Origin: Catajapyx aquilonaris | Taxonomy: Eukaryota | Assembly (NCBI GenBank): GCA_000934665.2 | Contig: KZ538880.1 | Location: forward strand, 1-42,854 | Direction: 5' to 3' | Length of the DNA: 42,854 bases | Part shown: positions 1-40,013 of the stretch, piece after piece | Position numbering within the stretch: position 1 is the stretch's first letter | Layout: every line of letters begins with the position of its first letter | Notes under the pieces: model-generated | Told to the model about the DNA's origin: nothing | The model's database searches: none | Seen by the model: only the letters and a program-made list of their open reading frames with translations | Made by a program: the position numbers and the translations under genes

Positions 1-79
1 AAATTTTTGGCAAATTCTCAAACCATGTTGTCTTTTTGACAAGTGAAAAAATACTTTATATGGCGAGGCTGGGGGTGGT

Positions 80-561
80 GTGATACGTGTCTCTTTTTTT
101 GAACCCTCTAGTGCGGAGGAGGAGAAACAATTGTTTTTTTTTTGTCAATTATTCAGTACGGCTCAGTTTTTCCAGGCATTCCTACGTTTTTTCATATGCA
201 CATTTTGTACAAAAAAAAAACAAACAAACAACTGGTTATTTCTAGTGTATGGATGTATTGTACTATACAATAAAAAAAAAGGTATGTGTGGTTGTTACAT
301 TCGTGCAAAAAAATTATTGCAATACCACCTGACCTGTAATACATCATATAAATAATTATATGTAAACAAGATTGCAAATTACGTAACAAATATAATACAA
401 ATTATATAAAGAACGATAGCCTGCATCTGGCCTACATAAATAATGTGATCTTTTTAAAAATTATAAGACTACAATTCAACAAATTTAGGTAAATCAGAGC
501 CATCTACCCGGTGGTATGTGCAAGTGAGCAGAAGCACGTGTCTTTTTGACCCTGATAGTAC
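80..561. repeat. Non-coding segment duplicated at ~2695-2940 and 3409-3473 (tandem duplication unit)
   Basis: Colinear shared blocks: cgtgtctcttt..tgaaccct, ctcagtttttccaggc..ttcctacgtttt, atgcacattttgta, acca(c/t)ctgacct, cagagccatctacc, aagcacgtgtctttt, gatagtac. Confidence 0.8.
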
Positions 562-760
562 CCTGAGATATGACAGGAGCATTTTGCATGGGGGGAAGTC
601 CCCCTCTCACAGCCAAGCAGGAAGTATGAGAGCCACACATTGCATTGGAGTGAGGGGAAGGTTTCGCTGACAGCAAGTGTCAAATTTGCTGTGAGTTTGT
701 TGTATTGAGACATGAACGCTATAGGTGTTAACAGATGCAATTTTCTCATTTGAGATAAAA

Positions 761-2583
761 ATGGAGAGCAACGTTGCTGTCCTCAACCAGGCCAAGTTGT
801 ACATACGGTCAACGCTGCTGGCCGAGAAGGACGTAAGTCGTGCGGTGCAAAGTTGTGATATAATAATAAGGATTTTTGATATTTCCAGGGTCTGTCTCCC
901 AGCAAGTTGATGGGGTTGTATCGTGATATGGTGGGCCAGGACGTCCCTTGGAAGATACTAGGGTACGGCTCGGCCTTGTCCTTCCTGAGGTCCATACCCG
1001 ACACGGTGCAGGTCAGGGAATGCGGAGGGGAAGTCATGTTGATGTGCGTGGCTGACGCTTCCACTGCTCATGTGAAGGAGCTGGTCGACAAGAGCAAGAA
1101 GCGTCGTGCGAAGAAGTCTCGCTCTGGGCGGGCCCAGTGCAAGGGGGTATCTCCACCGGAAGAGAGTAGCACCCAGGATGCTCCAATTGTGAAGAAGAAT
1201 GCCATCAGTCAACCTAGACAAGGTAATAACCTGACTCGTATGTAGGAGGCGAGTGCATAGAATATATGGAATGTATTTTCACATTCCAGAAAAAATGGAT
1301 GACAATGCTGCGTCTGTGATCAATGAGACCAAGATGTACATACGGTCAATACTGCTGGCCAAGAAGAGACATGTAAGTCATGTGCCTTGTAATTTACTAT
1401 TACTTAATGTTCATGGTATTATGCATTATTTTGGCAATTTCAGTGTCTGAATCTCATCTGGTTTAGAAAGTTGTATCGTCGTAAGGTCGGCCAGGATGTA
1501 CCGTGGAAGCGGCTGGGATACAAATCAGTCGTGTCCTTCCTGAAGGCCATACCTGACACGGTGAAGGTCCAACAGTGGGGAGGGGGAGTCATGTTGAAGT
1601 GCGTGGCAGACGCTTCCACCCCGCATGGGAAGGAGCTGGCAGACAAGAGCTGCAGCAACCATTGCTCTGGCCGTGCCCAGGACCAGGGCGTACTGCTTGC
1701 ACCGAAAGGGACGTACGCCACGGTTGGGAAGAATACTATCATCAGTCATAATACCCCAACAATAACAGTATCTCCGACCTGTGCCAGACTCCAGGCCAAT
1801 TTAATCGAGATCACCCCTAGAGCTGCCACTGCCAGTCGTCCCATCCATCCCACCCCTGGCGGTATACGAGGCCCCCAAGCAGGTGTTGCATTCACCTGCC
1901 CTGTACAGAAACTGTTTGAACCTCAGGCTGACACAGTCCGGCCTCGGATCCAACCTAGTTCTGCCCCGAGCCGACTTCCACTCTCATCCGACTACTCGTC
2001 CACCAATTCCAAGGAAGGTTGGGCGCCTGCGAATGCAAGCGCAGGCACATTAGTAGACCAGAATGAAGTGGACCAGAGTTCGTCATCGCCTGAACAGGTC
2101 AGTCAGGTTTCTGTAGTGGTAATAGGTAATCCACATTCGCCGGTTCTGTAGGTAGCGAATGACATCACCGAGTCAGAAGTTGGCGTGTCCGGCGGGACCA
2201 AGATTCTTCCCGAAACCTTTGATGACATCCTGGCGGAAGTCGTGAGTCCGGAGATACTCTCTCAGATCCGTGCCATGCTTGCTCAGCATCCGGAAGGGAT
2301 CGCCTCAAAGCAGCTCAGGCAGCTGTACAAGGAGACGTACGGAGCTGACCTTCCTCGTGCCGAGCTGGTATGCAGCACCGTCCAGCAACTGACTCCGCAT
2401 CTGTCCGCTGTGGTGACACTACTGACGGGCCATACAAACGGACAGGTCCAGGAAAGCAAAGTAAAAAATGTACAGCCACATACCACGCCAGCTAAACCGA
2501 TATTTGCAATTGCACTTGCCTCGCTCACAGTGTACCTCATTACCCGTTGGCGTGGTAATAATAGCAAGTACGGAATTTACTGA
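761..2583 (+). CDS. LOTUS-only paralog of the TDRD5-like gene (partial tandem duplicate): eLOTUS-eLOTUS-Pro/Ser linker-LOTUS-hydrophobic C-tail, ~524 aa
   Basis: Exons 761-832, 889-1222, 1290-1372, 1444-2097, 2152-2583. All introns are GT-AG (56, 67, 71, 54 bp) and the joined 1575 nt are stop-free. MESNVAVLNQAKLYIRSTLLAEKD/GLSPSKLMGLYRDMVGQDVPW and MDDNAASVINETKMYIRSILLAKKRH/CLNLIWFRKLYRRKVGQDVPW both match the N-terminus of the 6112 gene. KILPETFDDILAEVVSPEI...QHPEGI matches its exon 5. It could instead be two separate or pseudogenised copies. Confidence 0.65.
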
Positions 2584-3408
2584 CTGGTACCCTCATTTTT
2601 GCATTGCCAGGCCATTTCGCACATGGGAAGGGAGGAATTCTCAGCCGTGTTGAATGGTCTTTATTACGACGGGTGAACTTATTTGTATGGCCAGGCGATA
2701 CAGCGTGTCTCTTTCTGAACCCTAATTTTTGCATGACGGCAAAAGGGGGTCGAACAATTTCTTTACATACCCGGTATTCAGTGATTACGCCTCAGTTTTT
2801 CCAGGCGCGTTCCTACGTTTTCTCATACTATGCACATTTTGTAAGGAAAAGCACTTGTGTACGCACGTGTTGTACTATACAGTTAAAAAGATTGTTATTT
2901 TTGAATAAATTAATTGCTACACCATCTGACCTCCAATAAATAATATTACATAACAAAATAAATAAACACGTTTCAGCTATATTTTTAATTATAATAATGC
3001 TTGTTTCACCAACTATATTAGAATTTATTGCTATATACATATATTCGAATGATCATCGAATTTATGAATATTCGAATATTTATTTTTATAATTTAAATTT
3101 AAAAAAATCGAATGAATTTAAAGATTTGAATGAACAACTATTTCATAAACATTGAAATTATAAAGGTATTACAATAAAATAATGTTCTATGTTATTTATT
3201 ATATTAAGTAAATTTGCAATGTATAATATAAAATATTAATAAGACTGCATACAATAATATTTTAATGCAAATAAATAGAATAAAATAGTATATTACATAA
3301 TGCAAATTATAAATGCAGCCTTAAAACTTCGAAGTACAAATAGCAAGAAGGGGTGGATTGCTGGAGTCGACAACGCATGACGACCGTATTTTCATTTACG
3401 GTATAAAG

Positions 3409-3473
3409 CAGAGCCATCTACCGGGCGCATGCGCAAAGTGAAAAAGCACGTGTCTTTTAGACGCCGATAGTAC
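3409..3473 (+). promoter_or_regulatory. Putative promoter-proximal block of the TDRD5-like gene (CTCF-like GCCATCTACCGG, NRF1/Ewg-like GCGCATGCGCA, E-box CACGTG)
   Basis: The block is conserved with 495-561, which lies ~200 bp upstream of the duplicate's ATG. Motif matches were made by eye only. Confidence 0.4.
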
Positions 3474-3629
3474 TTCTCAAATTTGCTCTTAAAAATTACG
3501 GGAAAAAACGTAATTTAAATCCGCTTTAAAAAAATCGTACAACAATTTGCGAATTATTTGTCAGGGGACGGTCTTAAGCGCTAGTGCACAGTTCGCAGCG
3601 ATCCGGTCGCAGTAGCGGTACTTTATCCT

Positions 3630-3774
3630 AATTAGATCAAAAACTTTCCCTTCGGTAAAAAAAAAAAGATAAGTAAGACCTCCGCGGCGGAATAAAAGTA
3701 CTGAAACAAGGCAGGCGCACGTAAGACCTTCACCAATTGATTTAAGCTGTACCATAGGTCTTACTCAAGCAATT
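3630..3774 (-). mobile_element. Inverted ~145-bp copy of the 5' end of the Helentron/DINE-1-like element at 4232
   Basis: Near-perfect reverse complement of 4232-4376. Confidence 0.75.
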
Positions 3775-4231
3775 TCCAATTCACTGCTCATGAAGTCTCC
3801 TTTCTGAAACAAATCTGTGGAGTTTCTGTCGTACTACTAGTTACTTCTAACTTGGCAGTACCAGTGTAGTGCAATGGTACTGCTAAGTTAGCAGTATTAG
3901 TTTTCCATGAGCCACTCCATATTAGTGTTTTATGAAATTAGGAACTTCAATATTAAGCACATTGAATTTCTATGCGATTAGTGCGAATTATTGCCATGAA
4001 ACATTAATGCAGAATCGTCACCTCTTTTAGATGCTGATTTTAACTCTAACGTTTAATTTTTCACATATAAACGTTAATTGGTGAATTTTAGAGGGTATGG
4101 TTGGACCAAGTCCGTTAGAATGGGTTTAGTCTTTTTCCCCAATTTTTTTCTTTTCAAAATAAAACCCTACATATACTACTCTGAGTAGTATGCAGCAGTC
4201 ATTTTACGAGCCGTTCCATACCGTACTTGAG

Positions 4232-5195
4232 AATTGCTTGAGTAAGACCTATGGTACAGCTTAAATCAATTGGTGAAGGTCTTACGTGCGCCTGCCTTGT
4301 TTCAGTACTTTCATTCCGCCGCGGAGGTCTTACTTCTCTTTTTTTTTTTACTGAAGGGAAAGTTTTTGATCTAATTTCAGTTCTTTTTTGACAGTACACG
4401 TAACTTATGCTCTACACTATACAGTCTGCACTATGAATGCATTGGAGACGATTTTTGTCGCTTAGAAGTCCCTAAAATTATTTGCACAGAGACAGTCGTA
4501 AAAAAAACCAAAGAGGAGTGCTACCAGCCAACGGTTAGTCTGATTTAATTATTATGAAATAGCCTATACGCTAAAGTATACGGAGTATATACATTGAGAA
4601 CTGTACCAGACGATACATAAACGCAAAGGTACATTAAAGTTGGGTGAAAACCCAACGGCGACAGTACGACTCGGCGTCGCTCATCTTGTCCTCCTTTGAC
4701 CCACAACAATATATGAGGTGGTAAACAACAACTGACGTTTCTAGGTGATGGCCTCATGAACAAATGAAGTAATGACAGAAAAAATACGAGGTAAAAAAAT
4801 CACAGCTCCAATCCTGTACCATAGGGAACTGTGAGATTTTGAACATAGATCCGCACCAGCATCCTACTGCACCTTCGGCCCTTATTGACGAAGAAACCAA
4901 ATTCCGAATAGTTATTGAGCAAAAAAATTGACACGTATTTTTTGGTGGTTGTAAATTTTTTGCGGCGTTTTGAAGAGGAATTAAGTAAAAGTGTAAATGG
5001 TAGGAAATCAAGTCACGACGGTGGAAATCTGTGTTCAAAATTTGGAAGCTCTACCTACAGCAGAATCTGAGTTAGGGCGATTGAAAAAAAACGTAACAAC
5101 AACAACAAGAAGAAGAAGAACCAGGAAAAATTCATTGTTGAAGCATTGTTGCAATCTATGATGCTACGGTCTTACTTAAGGGCTATCGCCCTTAA
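4232..5195 (+). mobile_element. Non-autonomous Helentron/DINE-1 (HINE)-like element
   Basis: 5' subterminal repeat AGTAAGACC has local inverted partners (GGTCTTAC). An (AAC)n(AAG)n microsatellite lies at ~5095-5120. The 3' GGTCTTACT is followed by the hairpin TAAGGGC-tatc-GCCCTTA and an A-run. No ORF or long TSD. Confidence 0.55.
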
Positions 5196-5275
5196 AATGC
5201 AAACAGCCAACTGCAGTATCGGCTATTTTAGAGAACCGCGATGTGATTCCTGTCCACTAATTTTTTCCTCTTTTC

Positions 5276-5616
5276 CAACGAGATAGAATAGGGTAGAGGC
5301 CGTAAAGGTCACGTGATCCTTGGCGGCCATGCCACTTCACGGCAAGAACGTGCGCTCATTTGAAATTGCCGTATTTCTAACCCTGTTCTCCTCTGTCTAC
5401 ACTCCTGCCTCCTGGCGGGGGGGTGGGAGTAAATAAAAACGTCCCCAGACAGCCTTTTCTTCCTAGTCCCGCCAGGAGGCAGGAGAGGAGTTAACAGGGT
5501 TAGCGATACTACAAATTTCAAAGTTCTTGCCGTGAAGTGTCATGGCCGCCCGATGGCCGCCATTTTGCTTCAATGATGTCCGACCTGTACGGCCTCTACC
5601 CTATTCTATCTCGTTG
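5276..5616. mobile_element. 341-bp foldback MITE, P-element- or hAT-type (8-bp TSD)
   Basis: Perfect 29-bp TIRs CAACGAGATAGAATAGGGTAGAGGCCGTA (5276-5304 / 5588-5616). TSD CTCTTTTC at 5268-5275 and 5617-5624. Further internal inverted blocks at 5322-5349 / 5523-5550. Confidence 0.9.
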
Positions 5617-6111
5617 CTCTTTTCCTTTTTTTTTTTTCTTCTTCTTAAATTTTTTTTTCTTCTTTTCCCTATTCTTTTGTTGGCTAAAGGTCTCTAGCTC
5701 TCCCAGCAGCACATGTCGGGCGTCTGTGGGGATCATCTGGTGTGGTCCAGGCGCCTCCCACGTCCAGCCCAGCAGGCCCAGCTACACTGTAGGAGGAACA
5801 GGGGGCCTTAGGGGATCGAGCCAAAAGAGGGTGTAAGAGTTACGCCACACTGGGTTCAGGTTACGCCAGACTTACAACGGGTTCAGACAGAAGAAGAACA
5901 GCTGCTGGGGATGAGGCGTGGCTCACCCTTTTCCCCATGCAAGGGAACCGGGTCCGCACCCGGCCCACTTGTCGGCTGCGGAACAAGTGGACCGGGTTGA
6001 CGAGCTGTCGTCTCATCCCGAAGCGCGTGTCTCTCACCCGACATTTGTTGAAGGAGTAGTTAACAAGCAGTACATTTGTTGATGACACTGGCCCACATTT
6101 TCCAGGTGAAG

Positions 6112-7772
6112 ATGGAGGGCAACGCGGTGGCGTTGCTGAACGAGGTGAAGATGTACATCCGGTCTACGTTGCTGGCCGAGAAGGACGTGAGTTTGGCTCC
6201 ATAGCGTACCTAGCGTCCTGATGATTCGGGTTGTGATTTCAGGGTCTGCCGCTCCACAAGTTCAGAGGGTTGTATCGTGATATGGTGGGACATGATGTGC
6301 CGTGGCAGCGCCTGGGGTACGACTCGGTCGTGTCCTTCATGAGGTCCATACCAGACACGGTGCAGGTCCGGCAGTACGGAGGGGAAGTGGTGTTGATGTG
6401 CGTGGCGGACGCATCCACCGCGCATGTGAAGGAGCTGGTCCAGAAAAGCCGCAGCAATAGCAGTCGTTCTAAGAGGTCTCGCTCTGGCGGGTCTCACTTG
6501 GGCGGATCTCACTTGGGCGGATCTCGCTCTGGCGGGTCTCGCTCCGGGGGCTCTCGCTCCGGTGGGCCTCGATCCAGCGGGTCTAGCTACAGCCGTACGA
6601 CCCAGTACCCGGGCGTACCTCCACGGCTTACGCCGGAAACGAGACGAGCCCAGGTTGCTCCAATTGTGAAGAAGAATGTCATCAACCTCCTAAGGTAACG
6701 GTCTGATCCAACCGTGTTCAGCGGGAAGACTAATTGACATTCTCTTGCAGGATACACACCCAAGGATTGTCCTACGCCGAGCTGTTGAGGCAGTACAAGG
6801 CCAGCTTCAAGATGCAGCTGGAGCTGATCGTTGCGGAGTATGCGAGTCCGGATCAGTTTGTTGATATTCTCCGCCCCGAAGTTACCACCACTCAAGTCCA
6901 AGGAGTTCACAAAGTGATTCTGTGCGGTGAGTACCTTTGTATGTCATCTTGAATTCGGTTTTTTAATTATATATTTCAATTTCGTGACTTGAAACCTGCA
7001 GGTGTAGGTCGGTGGAGTGTCTGGCCGGAATCTAATTAGCGTGAAGATAATTAGGGAGCATGTAATGTGTTGGTTTCAGGTTTCCAGCATGCATGTCGAA
7101 GCGGAATAATGTGGGCACAGCACTTTTCCAACTGCTCTCATTTTTTTTTGCTGCTCGAAAGTGCTGACTAGTTGTCTCCAATCGTTATTTTCAAGGGATT
7201 CAAGGTTCCTCGTAAACTTCAGTTGACCTTCAGACTTTTGTTCAAACAGTTGTCAGTGAACCTAAGGGCGATTATATTCTTGGTTGTGAGTCGTTTGCTA
7301 TTGCAGGTAACGTCAGAAGAACGACGGCAACAAGAGCATTTCCGTCTCATGCCAGCCCCCCCATCAACTTCAACGGCTTCATGTGGAAAGCTGTTCCGCC
7401 TGTGCCCCCGCCTGCGTTCAGCCCTAGAGAACCTCCGCCTCCCAGTCTTCCCATCCGTGCCAACCCTGCCCCTCTCCTAGGTCCTCAAGCAGGTAGCGCA
7501 TTCACCTGCCCTCAAGTAGGTAGCGCATTCACCTGCGCTGTACAGAAACCGTTTGAACCTCAGCCTGTCCGGCCCAGACCCCAGCCTAGTTCTGTCCGAA
7601 TGCGACCTCCTCCGCCTCCGCTCTCTGAGTCATCAGACACCTACTACTCATCCACCGACACCGAGGAAGGCTGGACACCTGTCAACACAAGCACAGGCAC
7701 AATAGTGGGACAGACCGAGGCGGATGAGAGTTCGCAATCACCTCAACAGGTCAGAGGATTTGTGTGCAGTTA

Positions 7773-7830
<58 letters not shown>

Positions 7831-10707
7831 CCTTTACACATGGTCATTCCATCCTTACTCATCCCCCCGTTACAGTAGATCAATTTCCCACTTCTTGCTA
7901 GTTCAGGAATCAGTGGAGAAGTCCCTGTGTGTGCAGTTAATGGTAAAAAGTAATCCGCAATTACCGGCTCTTTAGGTACTGGTAGCTAAAGACGTACCCA
8001 AGTCAGCCACAGAAGTTGGCAAGATGCATCCGGAAGAGAATGGCCACACTCATGAGCTTCCAGGCGTGTCCGACGGGACCAAGATTCTTCCAGAAACGTT
8101 CGACGACTTCCTAGGGGAAGTCGTAAGCCCCGAGATACGCTCGAAGATCCGTGCGGTGCTTTCCCAACATCCGGAAGGGATCACGTCGGACCAGCTCAAG
8201 CAAATGTACAAGGAGACATACGGTGCGGACCTTCCGCTTGCCGATCTGGGCTGCGATTCTGTACTGCAGCTGGCTCGGCATCTGACCGCTGTAGTAACGC
8301 TGGGCCAAACAAACGGAAATTGCCTTCTGTTCGACAGCCACGGGCACAAACCATCTCAGCAAGCAGCTAGGAGCAGCTCTCCCGCAGCCGAAGCAAATGG
8401 ACGGGTGGCACATGCGGACAAAGTGAACGCATCGGTTGCACATTTGGACAAACTGAACGCAGTGGTTGCACGTCGGGACAAACTGAATGGACCGGACTAT
8501 GAGGCCAAACTGTTACAGTGCATCCAACAGTTTAAGGAAGGCCTGGCGTACCAAAACATTGCGCAGGAGTTCAAGAAATTTACTGGGGAGGAGCTTCACG
8601 TAGGCCCGAACACAACGTTGGAGTGCATGTTAGCGGACATGAAGCCAGACATTGAGCTGTCGTACTCATGTAACGGCCTCAGGATAATCCCAGGCCGAAA
8701 GAGGCCGACTGTAAGTCAACACGGTATGGTCGCATTTCACGCTTAATAATTTTTTTTTGTAAAATGCAGCGTGCGAGTAACGCCAGAGAGGAGTCGGCTT
8801 CGGAGGTTCCGCAGCCTCAAGTCGTGTATGTCCCACCTGACGTTGTGGCCTTGGGCGAACAGTTTGTCTTCGAGACCTTGCCAGACTTCCAGACCATGGA
8901 CGAACTTGTGATTGTGGACGTCCAGGTGGTGGAGTACCGTTCGCCTTACGTGATCTTCTTCCACATCAAGGGCTGCCCCAAGTTCGAAGAGATGATGGAG
9001 CGAATGGGGCAGTTTTACGATGGACCGGACGGAAACAATTACATCATGCCTGAATCAGAGGTTATGGTCGGACGGATCTGCGCCGTTCCTTACACCGGCA
9101 TCTGGCACCGAGCCGTCATCACGTCACGAAAAGACAATGCAATCGGGGTAAGTCCACTGTTTGTAGCCGACAATTCATGTACCTCTAAACCCGGCTGTTT
9201 TCCAGATCAACTACGTGGACTATGGGACTAACGGTCAGGTGCACAGCCGGAATATGATCCGGCTGCTTCGTCAGGAGTACTTCACTCTTCCGGCGCAGGG
9301 AATCCGAGCCCGACTTTGCGGCGTTAAACCCATGGAGGAAAAGTGGCCGGGCGGCTCGATCCAGTTCTTATGGAACTATATTAACAGGCCGCTAGAGTTG
9401 AAGGCCTGTAATGTCCACTATAACATTGAAGTGAGTACAATAATCTCGCGGATAATGACACAATTTAAATGCAATTATTTACAGAGAAGTGCTCCAGATG
9501 TGGTTTTGCTGGATGTGACAGGTGGGAGCGTGACGTGCCTGAACGAGCTGATGATCAGCAGAGGGTTAGCAGAGGAGATTCCAGGGTGGCGATCGGTAAT
9601 GCAATATCCGCCTGGGCGTTACGAACGTGAGCCACATTCGGTTTCATTTCAGGTATTCAATCGCACGAAGGCGGCTCTTTCGGCCAGTTATCCTGCGGCT
9701 GTCGCACCCGCACCTGCCTTCGCAATGTCGTCTCATCCGATTGACAAGGTGAGCAGTTGGCTGCTGGCCAGCGCTTCCCTGTCCCCGTCGCCTGAAATGA
9801 CGCCGCAGAAACAAGCAGTGGCTCTGAACGGCCGAACCAGTGCAAGCCCAACTGCTCCGTCCGTCGCCTGTCCGGAAATGATGTCTTGGAACGACATGGT
9901 CAAAAAGGTCAGCCTGAGCGTCGCAACAGCCACGAAGACACCGCGTGGCGGACTAATAAGCGACAAGGCAGCGGCGTACCTCAGCCCAGACGCCGCCGTG
10001 GCCATGAACGGGTGAGATCACATGTTAGGATGAATCAAGCGGGAACTAATACGTTGCGGTTACAGATGGACAGGCTTCACTGCAGTTGACACCGAGAGTG
10101 TCGCCAGTCGCAGCCTCTTCTTGCGTGAGCCGCGATACGTCAAGGCATTCTGTAAGTACAAATCGTACATACTGATTGACGTTGCTCATGCGATGTTACG
10201 GTTGCAGCCTTGCCGTCAGGGAAGCGGGTTCATATGATTAACGTGAACGATGCGGCTTACATGACCGGGGCGGAGATTTCCTCGCTATTCCTTGACTGGC
10301 GGGGGATGGATCTCCTGGAAGAGATGCTGAAGAAGAAGGTGTTGGACGTCCCGTCTATGCAGGTCTATCGGTCGGAGAATCCGGTTCTGTTCAGACAAAT
10401 GCACAGGTGAGCGTTCAAAGCTACGTATTCAGATTCTGTTTCGTAACCGATGAACTTTGCAGAATGATGGTGCCAGGCTGCTTTCATGTCGCGACGGAGG
10501 TGATAACGGACAGTGTGACGCTTTACAGCATGTGGTATGTGGGGCAAGTGTTGATGCATCTGAACCATCCGAGCGCCGAAGTAATTACGGCGATTGAGGT
10601 GAGTTCGTTACCCTCATGATCCTTTACCCGTTAATTGTTTCCCCCGCACATTTCAGAATATTTCGGACACTTTCAATCACCTGGACGGATACTGGATGGG
10701 TTACTAG
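6112..10707 (+). CDS. TDRD5: Tudor domain-containing protein 5-like (Tejas/TDRD5 family): 4 LOTUS/OST-HTH domains + extended Tudor + C-terminal domain, ~1141 aa
   Basis: 13 exons: 6112-6186, 6243-6694, 6751-6926, 7307-7749, 7976-8710, 8770-9147, 9206-9430, 9485-9595, 9653-10011, 10066-10151, 10208-10406, 10463-10598, 10657-10707 (3426 nt, all GT-AG, phases consistent). LOTUS1 is IRSTLLAEKDGL...YRDMVG...LGY...SIPDTV with the C-terminal extension VADASTAHVKELV. Further LOTUS motifs: HTQGLSYAELLRQY, QHPEGITSDQLKQMYKETYG, FKEGLAYQNIAQEFKKFTG. Tudor: SPYVIFFH...CAVPYTGIWHRAVI...YVDYG...LPAQGIRARLCGVKP. A single Tudor favours TDRD5 over TDRD7. Confidence 0.85.
7775..7927 (-). mobile_element. 5'-truncated non-LTR retrotransposon/SINE fragment with (ATT)n tail in intron 4 of the TDRD5-like gene
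   Basis: 14-bp direct repeat TGTGTGCAGTTAAT at 7761-7774 and 7928-7941. An (AAT)n run (~7777-7830) forms the tail on the minus strand. The homologous 54-bp intron of the duplicate (2098-2151) lacks the insert. Confidence 0.75.
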
Positions 10708-12964: not shown

Positions 12965-13177
12965 AACGCTTTGCTCCTGTTACGTGACTGTGATATTACG
13001 CAATTATTTTTTACTTACGACCTTGTAAATCTGTTGGGCTAATAAATATCCAATGGTCTCATGGCCTGTGATTGATGGCGTTTCTTGCGAACGGACATTT
13101 TGGCGACAAGCTTTCAATCTCGATAAATTTGATCAATATCCGGTTTTAAAAGGCGGGTTGTCACCGTTGCGTCAACG

Positions 13178-15290
13178 ATGATCGGGGTCGTACTTGTACT
13201 GACCGTATGTAGGGCGTACACACTGTATCCAATGCCCCTTAACGCTGATGTGGCGAAGGTTAATCGCGACTCGGCAGTCGCAGCGGACCTGATCCGTCAC
13301 ATTCTTGCGGCCGATGCATACGGCTGCTGTCCCAGATTTTACCATGACTTTGAGATTGTTCCGCTGACATTTCAAGCGCTTCTGCATGGCCTAAGTTCAC
13401 GCCTGTCTCCGTACGCTCTGTACCGCGTATTGGACTGGAAGGCCGTAGGTTCAGGACGGTACGAACCGCATCAGGTGCTGAACTTTCTACCGCAATGGAC
13501 CTGCTCGACTGCAGACCGTAAGCTCCCGCTGTCACCTCCGATGCCCAACGGTCCATGCGTCGTACACATCATAATTGCATCAGGCAAGTACGCACAGAGA
13601 ACAGCGGACATGTTGTGTTACATGTCACGCCGAGGCAACGCAGGACAAGACATAGTGATGAACCATCATTTATTCTTCTACTGGAACCGAGACGGAACTG
13701 AAGAGTCGCTAACGACTGCGAAGGATCCGTCGGTATTCAAGCACAATCTGCATGCGACCATCCAGGGGAAGAGCGTCCGACTGTACCGCAGCAATTGCAA
13801 CCGTAAGTACACTGCGACTAAGTCCCGCCCGAAATTTACTGTTCAATTTTCAGAGACGAGACTGATCAACTTTTACAACGTTTCCGTTGCGGACTTGATT
13901 GTTCCGGTGAAGTTGTTCGAAGAGCCGTCCTGTCGCTTCAACGGTATCGAAGTGCCGTTCATGGTGCTCGTACCATTCGGCGGGTTGTCCGGCCGGATAC
14001 GTGAAGACATTAACGACACTCATCCGCTGTACACTGGTCCGCGATGGATGCGAGACCTAGGTCGCTCCATGAACTTCGTCGCAAACCAGCATTTCGGCGG
14101 GATGCACCATTTCTTCCGGTCCTTCGGAAACGGCACGTGCGAGGTCCGTATTTGCTCTGATTATTTAACCGCAATGTAACCGCGATTGTATCCAGCAGGG
14201 CTACACAGGATTGTTGCACATGAAGCGATACGTGGTCGCCCTGCATCTGCAGCTTCCCCAGATGCATGGGTCGTACGATGCGATCATGGTGCAGTACCCG
14301 TACTTCTACGACTGGTTCACCTTCTACATAATCAACCCGCAGGTCGTCTTCTCCTGGACGTCGTTCATGGAGCCGTTTTCAACCAGTATGTGGTCCGTCT
14401 CGTTGGTAATGTACATCGGATCGTCTGTCGCACTCTGGGGCTTATGGCGCACGGTGCGGATGCACGGTTCGCTCGGACGCAGCTTTCAGGATCTGTACGC
14501 CGTGCTGCTGACCCAAGCGGCGGAGATGCCAGCGAATCTGACTGTCCGCACTTACATGGCCACGGTGCTTCTCTGCTTCATGGTGCTGGTTTGGGCATAC
14601 CAGAGCATCCTCTTCGTGTTTCTGATGAAGCCTAGGAAGGAGCACATACCCGAGTCATTCGAGGAGTTAGCTCAGAGCGACTACTACTGGGTGTTCTACG
14701 AGGTGATCCTGCGTGACCAGCTGGCTAATTACGCCGCACTTCCAGACGTCAAAGCGTTCCGGGCTGTCCTTCCGAAGATGCAAACCCGCTTCCTCGTGGA
14801 AGGGTCCGAAGCGCTGTGTCTCGGTTCGTGCATACAATCGCCAAAGAACGCTTGTATCGGCACACGCTTCTTCGCAGACCAGACCAAGTTAAAGTTCTAC
14901 AGCGACCGGCTGGGTAATCCGATGCTGACTAGAGCCCCGGACAAGTTCTTCCAGTTTGGATTCACCATTGCGGCCACCCGGGACTGGCCGTACTGGGAGC
15001 TTCTGTTGAAGTCGGTCCTGCGATGGTTCGAAGGCGGTATTACGCCTTGGTGGTACGACTATATGGCGTTGCAGTCGTGGTTCGCAACCAGAAGGCCTAA
15101 TCAGACCAAGCTGGTGGAGGAAATCGATGATGGTACGTCGCTCCGGCCAATTCGCTGGGGGATGGTGCAAGGCGTATTCGCTTTACTATTCGCAGGGTAC
15201 GTCCTAGCTGCGGTGAGCTTCATGTACGAGGTGATGGCCGGATGCTGGACAAGGCGGAAAAGACAGCCTGCACGCATCTTTATAAAATAG
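13178..15290 (+). CDS. Divergent ionotropic receptor (IR, variant iGluR family chemoreceptor), ~668 aa
   Basis: Exons 13178-13802, 13854-14143, 14199-15290. Signal peptide MIGVVLVLTVCRA; S1-like GNGTCEGYTGLL; PFSTSMW+M1; pore LYAVLLTQA; M3 RTYMATVLLCFMVLVWAYQSILFVFL; S2 PESFEELAQS...RWFEGGI; M4 GVFALLFAGYVLAAVSFMYE. The first intron (51 bp, in frame) is less certain. Confidence 0.85.
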
Positions 15291-15376: not shown

Positions 15377-17686
15377 TCAGAGTTCGTCTTTCATTGCTGC
15401 ACCGATTGAGTACATGTAGCGGTCCACTTTTTGCGCCACTCTTTTGCAGCCGGTGGTTGAAAACAGCTTGGCGTCGTCCGGCCAGTAGATCAGCTCGTCC
15501 GCTATTTCCCTGCAAAGTGGCGGTGTTAACGACAGGCCTGTTGCACCGACAGTGGTACTTACGAGACGGCTGCGTCGTCAAGGGTCAGTTGGTAGTCGGT
15601 TTGAACCCGATTCTGTATGCATAAGATGACGTGCTTCCTCTCCATTGGGAAGAAAGGCACGTAGTAATTAACGAGGCTTCCGCCAACGACGTCGCTCAGG
15701 TGCAGCCCGCCCTTCTCGTTGAAGGCGCCTTGTTGCAGCAGATGCTCCACATCTGCAACGAGTAGGCGTCCCTGTGTACAAATCAGTAGGCCCCCCGATT
15801 AGAGGGGAGGGTGCGAGACCCACCTCTGAACCTGATGTCCTCCCGTCTCATCCCCTCTGTCCAGGCGTCGTAGGCCATGGACTTGAGCGCCCCCCCTCCC
15901 GTGTTGCTGAGGAAGACGAAGACGGAGTGGCGGTGGTTGACCCCGTCGATGTTGTCGTGGAAGTCCAGGAAGGGCTTCAGGGCGTCGATCATCCCCACGG
16001 GCATCTTGTCGATCTCGTCAAACACGTACAATGAGTGGGCGCATCTGGACGTGTTGCCGCTTATCCAGGAACGCAGCTGGTCCTGGAGAATGAAAAGAAA
16101 AAAAAAAACACCCCAATATTTACAACACACAGGTCAGGTCATGTCAGGTCACGTCGGGTACGGTAATGTTATATCAGTTCAGGATAGTGAACTGATATAA
16201 CCTAACAGGCTATTATAACTGAACATGACCTAACTAATATAATAGCTGAATGTATAGCTAAACCTAACTAACCTAACAGCAAAATATGACCTATTATAAC
16301 TAATACAGCTGCCCATGAACTAATATAACTAATACAGCTGTCCATGAACTTATGTAACTAATACAGCTGCCCATGAACTTATGTAACTAATATAACTGAC
16401 CATGAACTGATATAACTAATACAGCTGTCCATGAACTTATGTAACTAATACAGCTGTCCATGAACTAATATAACTAATACAGCTGCCCATGAGCTGATAT
16501 AACTAATACAGCTGCCCATGAGCTGATATAACTAATATAACTGACCATGAGCTGATATAACTAATATAACTGTCCATGAACTAATATAACTAATACAGCT
16601 GCTTATGAACTAATATATCTGCCCATGAACTGATATAACTGACCATGAACTAATATAACTGACCATGAACTAATATAACTAATACAGCTGACCATGAACT
16701 GATATAACTGCCCATAAACTGATATAACTAATATAACTGTCCATGAACTAATATAACTAATACAGCTGACCATGAACTAATATAACTGCCCATAAACTGA
16801 TATAACTAATATAACTACCCATGAAGTAATATAACTAATACAGCTGACCATGAACTAATATAACTGACCATGGCCTAAACTAGTATATTCACTCATGGTA
16901 TTAGGTTATATTAGTCAGTTACATTAGGTCATGTTCAGCTATATTAGTTTAGCTCATGTTCAGCTATATTAGTTTAGCTCATGTTTGGCTATATTAGTTT
17001 AGCTCATGTTCAGCTATATTGGTTTCAGCCATGTTCAGCTATATTAGTTTAGATCACCTTAGGTTAGTCTATGTTCGGCTATATTAGTTTAGGTGACATT
17101 AGGTTAGGTCATGTTCAGTTACATGAGTTTCGGGCTCTGTGTTAATTCAGGGATAATGTTAGGTTGACTTGCCGCGTATCGAGGGACGTCCTTCTCGTGT
17201 GGGAAGTGTATGGGGGAGATGTACTGGTGGACGTAGCGGCTCTTCATCCCCTCCACGGGGTAGAGGGCCTGGGCCACGAAGTTGCTGACGTAGTTCTTCC
17301 CCGTCCCTGTCCAGCCGTGGAAGGAGAGCACCAGGGCCTTGGAGGGGTTGGGGTTCCTCACGTGCTGGCCCACAGCAGCCATGATCAGCTCCTTGGCCAG
17401 GTGCTGCCCGTGGAGGTGGCTGTCCAGGCTGTGCTGGAGCCCTGCAATGACGATGGTCAGCTTGCTTCGGGGGATAACCACAGCGTACGTATAATATACT
17501 CCTACTGGTCATGTCGGCCTTGCTCCAGCCTTCGTTGCAGCACTCGGCGAAGCTGCAGTAGACGAACCTCATGGCGTGGTAGAACCCGCTGCCTATCCCA
17601 CCGGTGCCTCCACCAGAACCGGACTCTCCTGCTCCAGCGAGGCACACGACCATCACCAGCAGCACCAGGTGGTGGTACCTCCGCAT
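15377..17686 (-). CDS. Torsin: Torsin (Torsin-1A-like ER/perinuclear AAA+ ATPase), ~343 aa, C-terminal KDEL
   Basis: Exons 17686-17506, 17441-17173, 16082-15824, 15752-15563, 15509-15377. Signal peptide; YCSFAECC; LHGQHLA; KALVLSFHGWTGTGKNYV (Walker A); YVFDEIDK (Walker B); FLSN (sensor I); YVPFFPMERKHV; IADEL; FSTTGCKRV (sensor II); ends AMKDEL*. Minus-strand AATAAA at 15334-15329. Confidence 0.95.
16165..17118. repeat. AT-rich minisatellite/foldback array in torsin intron 2
   Basis: ~19/28-bp units (ccatgaactaatataactaatacagctg) over ~16300-16870, then related ~25-bp units in inverted orientation (tcatgttcagctatattagtttagc) over ~16928-17118. Confidence 0.9.

Positions 17687-20225: not shown

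Positions 20226-40013
<19,788 letters not shown>

Follow-up and report, generated by a model that had tools for sequence, protein, structure and literature searches.

We analysed a stretch of 42,854 nucleotides (nt) of the Catajapyx aquilonaris genome (contig KZ538880.1 of GenBank assembly GCA_000934665.2, positions 1 to 42,854, forward strand), hereafter the window, which carries near its left end a five-exon gene of LOTUS domains at 761-2583 and, further along the same strand, an orthologue of TDRD5 at 6112-10406. The first gene is a chimera that arose through partial tandem duplication of the second, to which we refer as the parent. LOTUS-domain proteins organise germ granules through recruitment and activation of Vasa. 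On balance we favour, with some reserve, the interpretation that 761-2583 is a real coding gene derived from a tandem duplication of TDRD5, with a Tudor-less product of 524 amino acids (aa) predicted to act as an adaptor for Vasa or as a competitor.

On the forward strand the spliced model comprises five exons totalling 1575 nt, which encode 524 codons and a TGA with no internal stop, and four introns of 56, 67, 71 and 54 bp, all of them GT..AG. Read unspliced, 761-2583 contains many stops in each of its three frames. The splice sites of the new gene resemble those of the parent, in which 9 of the 11 listed introns measure 54-59 bp. An earlier interpretation made from the letters of the window (the sequence-only reading) had proposed that two apparent fragments join in frame through a 67-bp GT-AG intron at 1222/1290, and the sequence at this join does read CAA G/AA AAA ATG (Q-E-K-M). 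The stop-free frame of about 524 aa which it predicted is likewise borne out by the five joined exons. The features of the new gene and its surroundings, all on the forward strand, are as follows.

9-349 (+): upstream flank, homologous to 2631-2946
490-561 (+): conserved 70-bp block, with a second copy at 3404-3473 upstream of the parent
761-832 (+): exon 1, ATG and first helix of the first LOTUS1 copy (U1); the homologue is parent exon 6112-6186
889-1222 (+): exon 2, core of the first LOTUS1 copy and its canonical extension VADASTAHVKELV (1048-1086), followed by a basic tail
1223-1289 (+): hybrid intron, 67 bp, AAG/GTAATA ... CACATTCCAG/AAA
1290-1372 (+): exon 3, in which a 5-nt remnant of 5' untranslated region (UTR) precedes the old start codon (1296) and the first helix of the second LOTUS1 copy (U2)
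1444-2097 (+): exon 4, which begins with the core of the second LOTUS1 copy and its degenerate extension VADASTPHGKELA (1603-1641)
about 1760-1810 (+): middle of exon 4, where the exon-2 donor has been lost and a little of the former intron has become exonic
within 1444-2097 (+): end of exon 4, Pro/Ser-rich linker, homologous to parent 7418-7749
2098-2151 (+): last intron, 54 bp, spliced out in an RNA contig of run X1
2152-2583 (+): exon 5, LOTUS3 at about 2254-2442 (homologous to parent 8063-8317) and a new tail from about 2443
2443-2583 (+): tail of exon 5, with a hydrophobic segment at 2497-2544 and the stop codon at 2581-2583
2584-2962 (+): 3' UTR and flank, a copy of the DNA upstream of the duplicated segment, with AATAAA at 2904, 2935 and 2957
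6112-10406 (+): parent gene, TDRD5 orthologue with LOTUS1, RS repeats, LOTUS3 and Tudor

The parent is itself well supported as a TDRD5 orthologue. Pfam recognises two OST-HTH/LOTUS domains (32.5 and 41.6 bits) and a TUDOR domain (25.9 bits) in it, and its nearest public proteins are TDRD5 or TDRD5-like proteins of Ptychodera flava and Lingula anatina. Compared with solved structures, its LOTUS1 matches human TDRD5 first (3s93, expectation (E) value 1.8e-11), followed by Drosophila Tejas (8wxs, 7.8e-10), with TDRD7 weaker. Ten of its introns are confirmed with GT..AG joints by a spliced contig of 3368 nt, which has zero mismatches to the window. The contig comes from X1, a single public run whose kind is unrecorded; because this contig spans ten introns, X1 must contain spliced RNA. 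Two further parent segments that the sequence-only reading had labelled LOTUS2 (exon 6752-6925) and LOTUS4 (8450-8710, the second half of exon 5) gave no OST-HTH match by Pfam and none by phmmer against the orthologues.

Origin by duplication and rearrangement

Self-comparison of the window revealed collinear homology between the new gene and the parent over 758-2442 and 6109-8317, together with two pairs of blocks in the flanking DNA, all at 70-85 % nucleotide identity. The following blocks were identified.

9-349 (+): matches 2631-2946
490-561 (+): matches 3404-3473, 82 % identity over 73 columns
758-1132 (+): matches 6109-6491
1156-1207 (+): matches 6633-6684
1811-2102 (+): matches 7418-7754
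2182-2442 (+): matches 8063-8317

Between 1-360 and 2600-2960 the mean column identity is 76 %, and the homology of 9-349 to 2631-2946 places the beginning of the duplicated segment at or before the first bases of the window. When the parent protein was searched against positions 1-6000 by tblastn, only residues 1-97 (twice) and 281-497 were matched, hence the RS-rich stretch, exon 6751-6926, the part beyond LOTUS3, the Tudor and the C-terminal domain are gone from the new gene. The sequence-only reading had listed LOTUS2, LOTUS4, the Tudor and the C-terminal domain as lost; the loss of the last two stands, while the labels LOTUS2 and LOTUS4 find no recognition by Pfam on the parent's own exons.

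Within the new gene, 740-1095 is repeated at 1275-1650 with 72 % identity. The repeated LOTUS1 piece starts in the acceptor 6 nt ahead of the parent ATG and stops just past the exon-2 donor, so that its borders fall within two different parental introns and the intron at 1223-1289 is a hybrid, with a donor descended from the exon-2 donor of the parent and an acceptor descended from the one preceding its ATG. In the present layout of the parent the same join would break the frame, since it would bring together 2 nt of a split codon and 6 nt of UTR. In the new gene two indels whose lengths are not multiples of three restore it: exon 2 has been extended by 5 nt at its end, and the UTR remnant, now 5 nt long, has lost 1 nt. 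The second unit lacks the exon-2 donor, and the frame continues into former intron sequence for about 50 nt before it reaches the homologue of parent 7418; an in-frame deletion in this unit skips the RS repeats, exon 6751-6926 and the start of the next exon. Similarity to the parent stops at 2442 and the later codons have no parental counterpart. These collinear blocks, the hybrid intron and the lost donor support the earlier proposal that the gene was built from rearranged TDRD5 exons.

A simple series of events accounts for this arrangement. A tandem segmental duplication, running from upstream of TDRD5 into the middle of the fifth coding exon, produced a truncated copy whose last 47 codons, stop and 3' end were supplied by the duplicated upstream flank. 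Inside the copy, a second duplication of the unit running from acceptor through exon 1, intron and exon 2 to donor then created the hybrid intron and placed two LOTUS1 units in frame, and the second unit lost, by an in-frame deletion, its RS repeats together with the next exon and part of the one after it. Derivation of the tail from the parental region after LOTUS3 was rejected, as a local alignment of 2443-2600 scored 18 against a shuffle maximum of 27. The similarity of 1-349 to 2600-2946 had also prompted us to consider an extra gene copy to the left of the window, but this is needless since one tandem duplication accounts for the collinear blocks.

The 70-bp blocks at 490-561 and 3404-3473 contain CACGTG, and an aligned GT is present in both (caa/gtgagc and aaa/gtgaaa). 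To judge from this conservation the block may be a shared promoter or 5' non-coding exon, and the aligned GT might serve as donor for a non-coding first exon joined to the acceptor before each ATG. Between the second block and the parent ATG lies a repeat-rich stretch (3541-5300) with a contig word depth of up to 109.7 and contig joints that are rearranged or on opposite strands, probably transposon insertions in the 5' intron or upstream region of the parent.

Parent and duplicate also differ in their tandem repeats. Exon 2 of the parent contains at 6475-6588 a 15-nt tandem repeat of 7.6 copies encoding GGSRS-type repeats, which is missing from both LOTUS1 copies of the new gene (a gap of 36 residues). 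In the parent linker exon a 27-nt unit occurs twice in tandem (7483-7536, 96 % matches); the new gene has one copy of it (a gap of 9 residues), consistent with a duplication that is either specific to the parent or lost from the new gene. The 226-bp intron of the parent carries a (TAA)20 microsatellite at 7771-7830.

LOTUS domains of the product

OST-HTH is the sole Pfam domain found in the new gene, in exons 2, 4 and 5. The Pfam scan which had been suggested as a check of the LOTUS assignments placed exons 2 and 4 (30.2 bits each, with the first helix excluded as it lies on the preceding exon) above the gathering cut-off of PF12872 (OST-HTH/LOTUS, 23.8 bits) and exon 5 below it (20.5 bits). 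Among solved structures the first LOTUS1 copy is best matched by the LOTUS domain of human TDRD5 (3s93, E 1.8e-11), in an alignment that covers the C-terminal extension characteristic of the extended LOTUS (eLOTUS) domain.

Excerpts of Jeske et al. (2017, PMC5458760) describe this extension as necessary for the binding and stimulation of Vasa, and report that mutation of Oskar L228, a helix-5 residue that is Ile in TDRD5 and TDRD7, abolishes Vasa binding. To compare the copies we utilized an eLOTUS profile of 87 segments, selected from the 150 best library homologues as full-length matches with room for the first helix. The spliced domain of the parent scored 109.2 bits, the first copy 103.6 bits and the second copy 75.0 bits. 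At helix-5 position 8, which we take to be equivalent to Oskar L228, the 87 homologues have I (65), V (14), L (5), M (2) or T (1); at position 12 they have V (81), I (5) or M (1). The parent and the first copy have Val at both positions, while the second copy has Gly and Ala respectively. It also has Pro at position 6, where the seven commonest residues (82 of the 87 homologues) do not include Pro. The conserved hydrophobic residues of the extension are thus present in the first copy (761-1086) and missing from the second (1296-1641). Both LOTUS1 copies that the sequence-only reading had described with an extension are there, although a consensus extension is found in the first alone and the Pro/Gly/Ala substitutions mark the second. 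On this evidence the protein appears to carry one canonical eLOTUS domain, not two.

LOTUS3, on exon 5, is 69 % identical to the LOTUS3 of the parent, which itself scores 41.6 bits, and the homology ends just ahead of the last wing strand. With a 17-row alignment AlphaFold models it as a winged helix (helix-strand-helix-helix-hairpin) with a predicted local distance difference test (pLDDT) score of 86-89 over residues 31-70; exon 5 modelled from the single sequence has a mean pLDDT of 48.9. The seven best matches to the LOTUS3 model in a Foldseek search of the PDB are all LOTUS domains (TDRD7, TDRD5 and Oskar). Target template modelling (TM) scores are 0.64-0.80 in the six matches to single-domain chains; the remaining match, TDRD7 chain 2ly1, has two domains and scores 0.33. 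The best E value is 1.7e-3 (TM 0.77-0.80), and none reaches 0.001. The proposed retention of LOTUS3 is supported, and so is the absence of a Tudor, with zero TUDOR matches in the five exons.

Selection and transcription

Ratios of non-synonymous to synonymous substitution (dN/dS, omega) were obtained by the Nei-Gojobori method, with branch values for the three LOTUS1 copies by a three-point method.

LOTUS3 against the parent, 87 codons: 0.25 (bootstrap 0.12-0.48, Fisher p 2.9e-6)
Linker against the parent, 96 codons: 0.45 (bootstrap 0.26-0.82)
LOTUS1 branch of the first copy, 95 codons: 0.38 (bootstrap 0.14-0.95)
LOTUS1 branch of the second copy, 95 codons: 0.83 (bootstrap 0.37-2.51)
LOTUS1 branch of the parent, 95 codons: 0.21 (bootstrap 0.07-0.59)

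Unique amino acid changes among the 95 residues follow the same order, with 6 in the parent, 10 in the first copy and 21 in the second. The branch dS values of the three LOTUS1 copies (0.24, 0.21 and 0.28) are nearly equal, which indicates that the copies split at about the same time, and dS to the parent is about 0.45-0.62 in each segment. In simulations of neutral substitution, a frame of 1572 nt remained stop-free in 1 of 20,000 runs at 0.2-0.3 substitutions per site and in 0.55 % at 0.1. The protein alignments to the parent contain 11 gap events, none of which disrupts the frame. Comparison of dN/dS with the parent had been proposed as a test for a pseudogene, and the values for LOTUS3, the linker and the first LOTUS1 are not those of a decaying one. 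The gene as a whole is held open by selection, with the second LOTUS1 largely freed from constraint.

In X1 a contig of 743 nt spans 1888-2095 and 2150-2706, with 208 letters on its shorter side. Shifting the cut by +2 places the joint exactly at 2097/2152, with removal of the 54-bp GT..AG intron, so that this junction, one of those predicted by the sequence-only reading, is present in spliced RNA and the gene is at least partly transcribed. Coverage by X1 is absent from the bin 1063-1416 and slight in 709-1062, which leaves little to go on for the junctions 832/889, 1222/1290 and 1372/1444. The 5' exons of the parent are thinly covered as well, with a depth of 3.1 against 8-13 further on.

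Certain observations weigh against a functional gene of this structure. Just one of the four predicted junctions is present among the joints listed for X1. Relative to the window the contig has 17 mismatches, an in-frame deletion of 15 nt (2056) and a deletion of 5 nt (2571), and may represent an allele or a very close paralogue in which the extreme C-terminus is not fixed. Eight of the mismatches fall within the 208 bp of linker, where the listed differences are 6 non-synonymous to 1 synonymous in addition to the in-frame deletion. The second LOTUS1, lacking the conserved helix-5 residues and with a branch omega close to neutral, may be a dispensable part of the protein, and no orthologue of the new gene, nor a close relative of either gene, was found in the protein collections searched. 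With exon 4 or the fifth exon of the parent as query, a word-indexed search of longer proteins yielded no match at E 0.001, which is weak evidence. Eight listed differences lie in the last 163 bp of the contig, among them a synonymous change in the hydrophobic segment and a K to Q change at 2566; the 5-nt deletion, four codons ahead of the stop, shifts the frame, which then stays open up to the contig end. Over 2152-2543, which includes LOTUS3, there is no listed difference, indicating that LOTUS3 is conserved between the two forms while the extreme C-terminus is not.

The 524-aa protein would require all five exons to be joined in a single transcript, and it is possible, though on the whole unlikely, that the locus yields other products instead. 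Retention of the 67-bp intron would give a mini-protein of 143 aa with a single eLOTUS, terminating at 1243-1245, and transcripts beginning further downstream and using the kept ATG at 1296 would give a protein of 381 aa with only the degenerate LOTUS1 and LOTUS3. The start codon of this second unit is still present and lies in a favourable context (AAAAAATGG), and the donor of the hybrid intron, GTAATA, is the weakest of the four, though one confirmed donor of the parent is GTAATG. An in-frame join would arise by chance, without selection, in one case of three, and the sole junction seen in RNA lies in the 3' half of the gene. Against such products, only about 50 bp lie between the would-be stop (1245) and the ATG at 1296, and with no AATAAA among them they leave no space for a terminator and a promoter. 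The constraint on the first unit (omega 0.38) means that it is translated in some form, and the two indels at the hybrid join act jointly in restoring the frame relative to the parental layout.

Rather improbable is a functionless, transcribed duplicate heading to decay, in which the open frame and the low dN/dS would be relics of past constraint or of gene conversion: the nearly neutral second LOTUS1, a LOTUS3 under the Pfam cut-off, and in the transcribed variant the frameshifting deletion near the stop and the excess of non-synonymous changes in the linker would fit such a duplicate, but the frame has outlived a branch dS of about 0.2-0.3 that only one neutral simulation in 20,000 survived, the alignment gaps are without exception in frame, LOTUS3 has an omega of 0.25 although this is averaged over both lineages, the splice site at 2097/2152 is in use, and the dS to the parent in all segments argues that recent gene conversion is not the cause.

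Predicted role, related proteins and other features

Taking 761-2583 as a coding gene under selection, its product of 524 aa would comprise a canonical eLOTUS, a degenerate second copy, a disordered Pro/Ser-rich linker, a minimal LOTUS3 and a novel hydrophobic tail, with no Tudor. By analogy with TDRD5 and Tejas the first eLOTUS may bind and stimulate Vasa. Lacking the Tudor, the protein would be unable to link Vasa to methylated PIWI proteins and might act as a monovalent adaptor for Vasa or as a competitor of TDRD5, presumably in the germline; LOTUS3 may add RNA binding or self-association. The sequence-only reading had proposed a bivalent adaptor. This does not agree with the near-neutral omega of the second LOTUS1 (0.83) or with its Gly and Ala at two sites of helix 5 where 86 and 87, respectively, of the 87 homologues have a hydrophobic residue, and from these residues the predicted adaptor or competitor is probably monovalent.

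The tail contains at residues 497-512 (nt 2497-2544) a run of 16 hydrophobic residues between Lys and Arg, with a Kyte-Doolittle mean of 1.81 over 17 residues and 1.5 over 19 (usual threshold 1.6). Tail anchors are defined here by a single hydrophobic segment of about 16-22 residues, no more than about 30 residues from the C-terminus. In AlphaFold models the segment is a low-confidence helix or coil, and the transcribed variant retains it and continues for at least 41 further codons. We regard it as very doubtful that this tail, acquired from flanking DNA, is a working membrane anchor placing a Vasa-binding eLOTUS on an organelle surface. If it were, the mitochondrial outer membrane, site of intermitochondrial cement formation, would be a candidate, and a membrane-tethered recruiter of Vasa would be a class not so far described. 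No literature on LOTUS proteins anchored in membranes or in the outer membrane was found among the titles and opening parts of abstracts listed, and none was found on TDRD5 duplicates.

The new gene shares with TDRD5/Tejas an N-terminal eLOTUS (76-79 % nucleotide identity to the parent), and LOTUS3, the linker and intron positions are common to it and the parent. It differs in the absence of the Tudor, the C-terminal domain, the RS repeats and exon 6751-6926, and in having a duplicated LOTUS1 and a new hydrophobic C-terminus. With no extended Tudor after its LOTUS domains it is a TDRD5 derivative and not a member of TDRD5/Tejas.

A Tudor-less LOTUS adaptor for Vasa is a concept already known from C. 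elegans. Excerpts of the study of MIP-1/EGGD-1 and MIP-2/EGGD-2 (PMC8331183) describe Tudor-less proteins in which disordered regions accompany two LOTUS domains that have a helix-5 extension, and which bind and anchor the Vasa homologue GLH-1. The architecture is similar, and binding and anchoring of Vasa is the role proposed for the new gene by the sequence-only reading. In contrast to MIP-1 and MIP-2, the new gene is of independent and recent origin from TDRD5, has a third, minimal LOTUS, and lacks the conserved helix-5 residues in its second eLOTUS. Oskar, whose extended LOTUS (PDB 5nt7 and 5a48) binds and stimulates Vasa, again has no Tudor, as excerpts of PMC5458760 relate; it differs in the OSK domain beside its LOTUS, which dimerises, whereas the new gene has no OSK-like part.

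Two or more matches running through the extension were identified in 6 of the 150 library homologues. Among known germline domains, those from the spider Oedothorax gibbosus (P0001) and Anopheles (P0110 and P0137), as well as P0055 and P0125, have OST-HTH only, while the TDRD5 of Lingula (P0003) has multiple matches of extension length with a Tudor present. Apart from these six, a protein of Artemia franciscana (P0066) has two near-identical eLOTUS copies and an RRM. The Oedothorax, Artemia and Anopheles proteins, all of them uncharacterised, resemble the new gene in having two or three LOTUS domains with an extension and no Tudor by Pfam, but come from unrelated duplications in other phyla and score about 40-50 bits per domain against the LOTUS1 profile of the window. 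By these comparisons, tandem eLOTUS architectures have arisen several times, of which the new gene is an independent and recent instance from TDRD5.

What the locus adds is a rearrangement that can be traced, with all breakpoints readable in one stretch of 10 kb beside the intact parent, and a predicted Vasa-binding end of TDRD5 that has been separated from the Tudor end, which binds PIWI, and maintained by selection. With one eLOTUS copy conserved and the other decaying, it offers a natural pair (Val/Val versus Gly/Ala in helix 5) for probing the requirements of Vasa binding. It also parallels Oskar and MIP-1/2 in pairing LOTUS with new partners in place of Tudor. As Tudor-less LOTUS proteins were known before, and partly duplicated germline genes as well, its value is illustrative and not surprising.

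Elsewhere in the window we identified a number of other coding features. One is a clear Torsin exon on the reverse strand at 17119-17508 (Pfam 117.7 bits). On the forward strand, a long single open frame at 12032-12964 matches Torsin weakly (21.5 bits, below the cut-off of 27) and may be a divergent or intronless torsin-like paralogue. An open frame of 373 codons at 14169-15290 (+) has a sub-threshold match to Lig_chan (24.4 bits, cut-off 30.8), preceded at 13133-14179 by a frame of 348 codons with zero Pfam matches. An NT-C2 domain (32.1 bits) is encoded by an exon at 38672-39211 (+), after which a Ser-rich open frame occupies 39147-40013. Assembly gaps are represented by two stretches of N (436 in total), at about 25.3-25.5 kb and about 35.9-36.2 kb, with G/C homopolymer-like sequence on their flanks.

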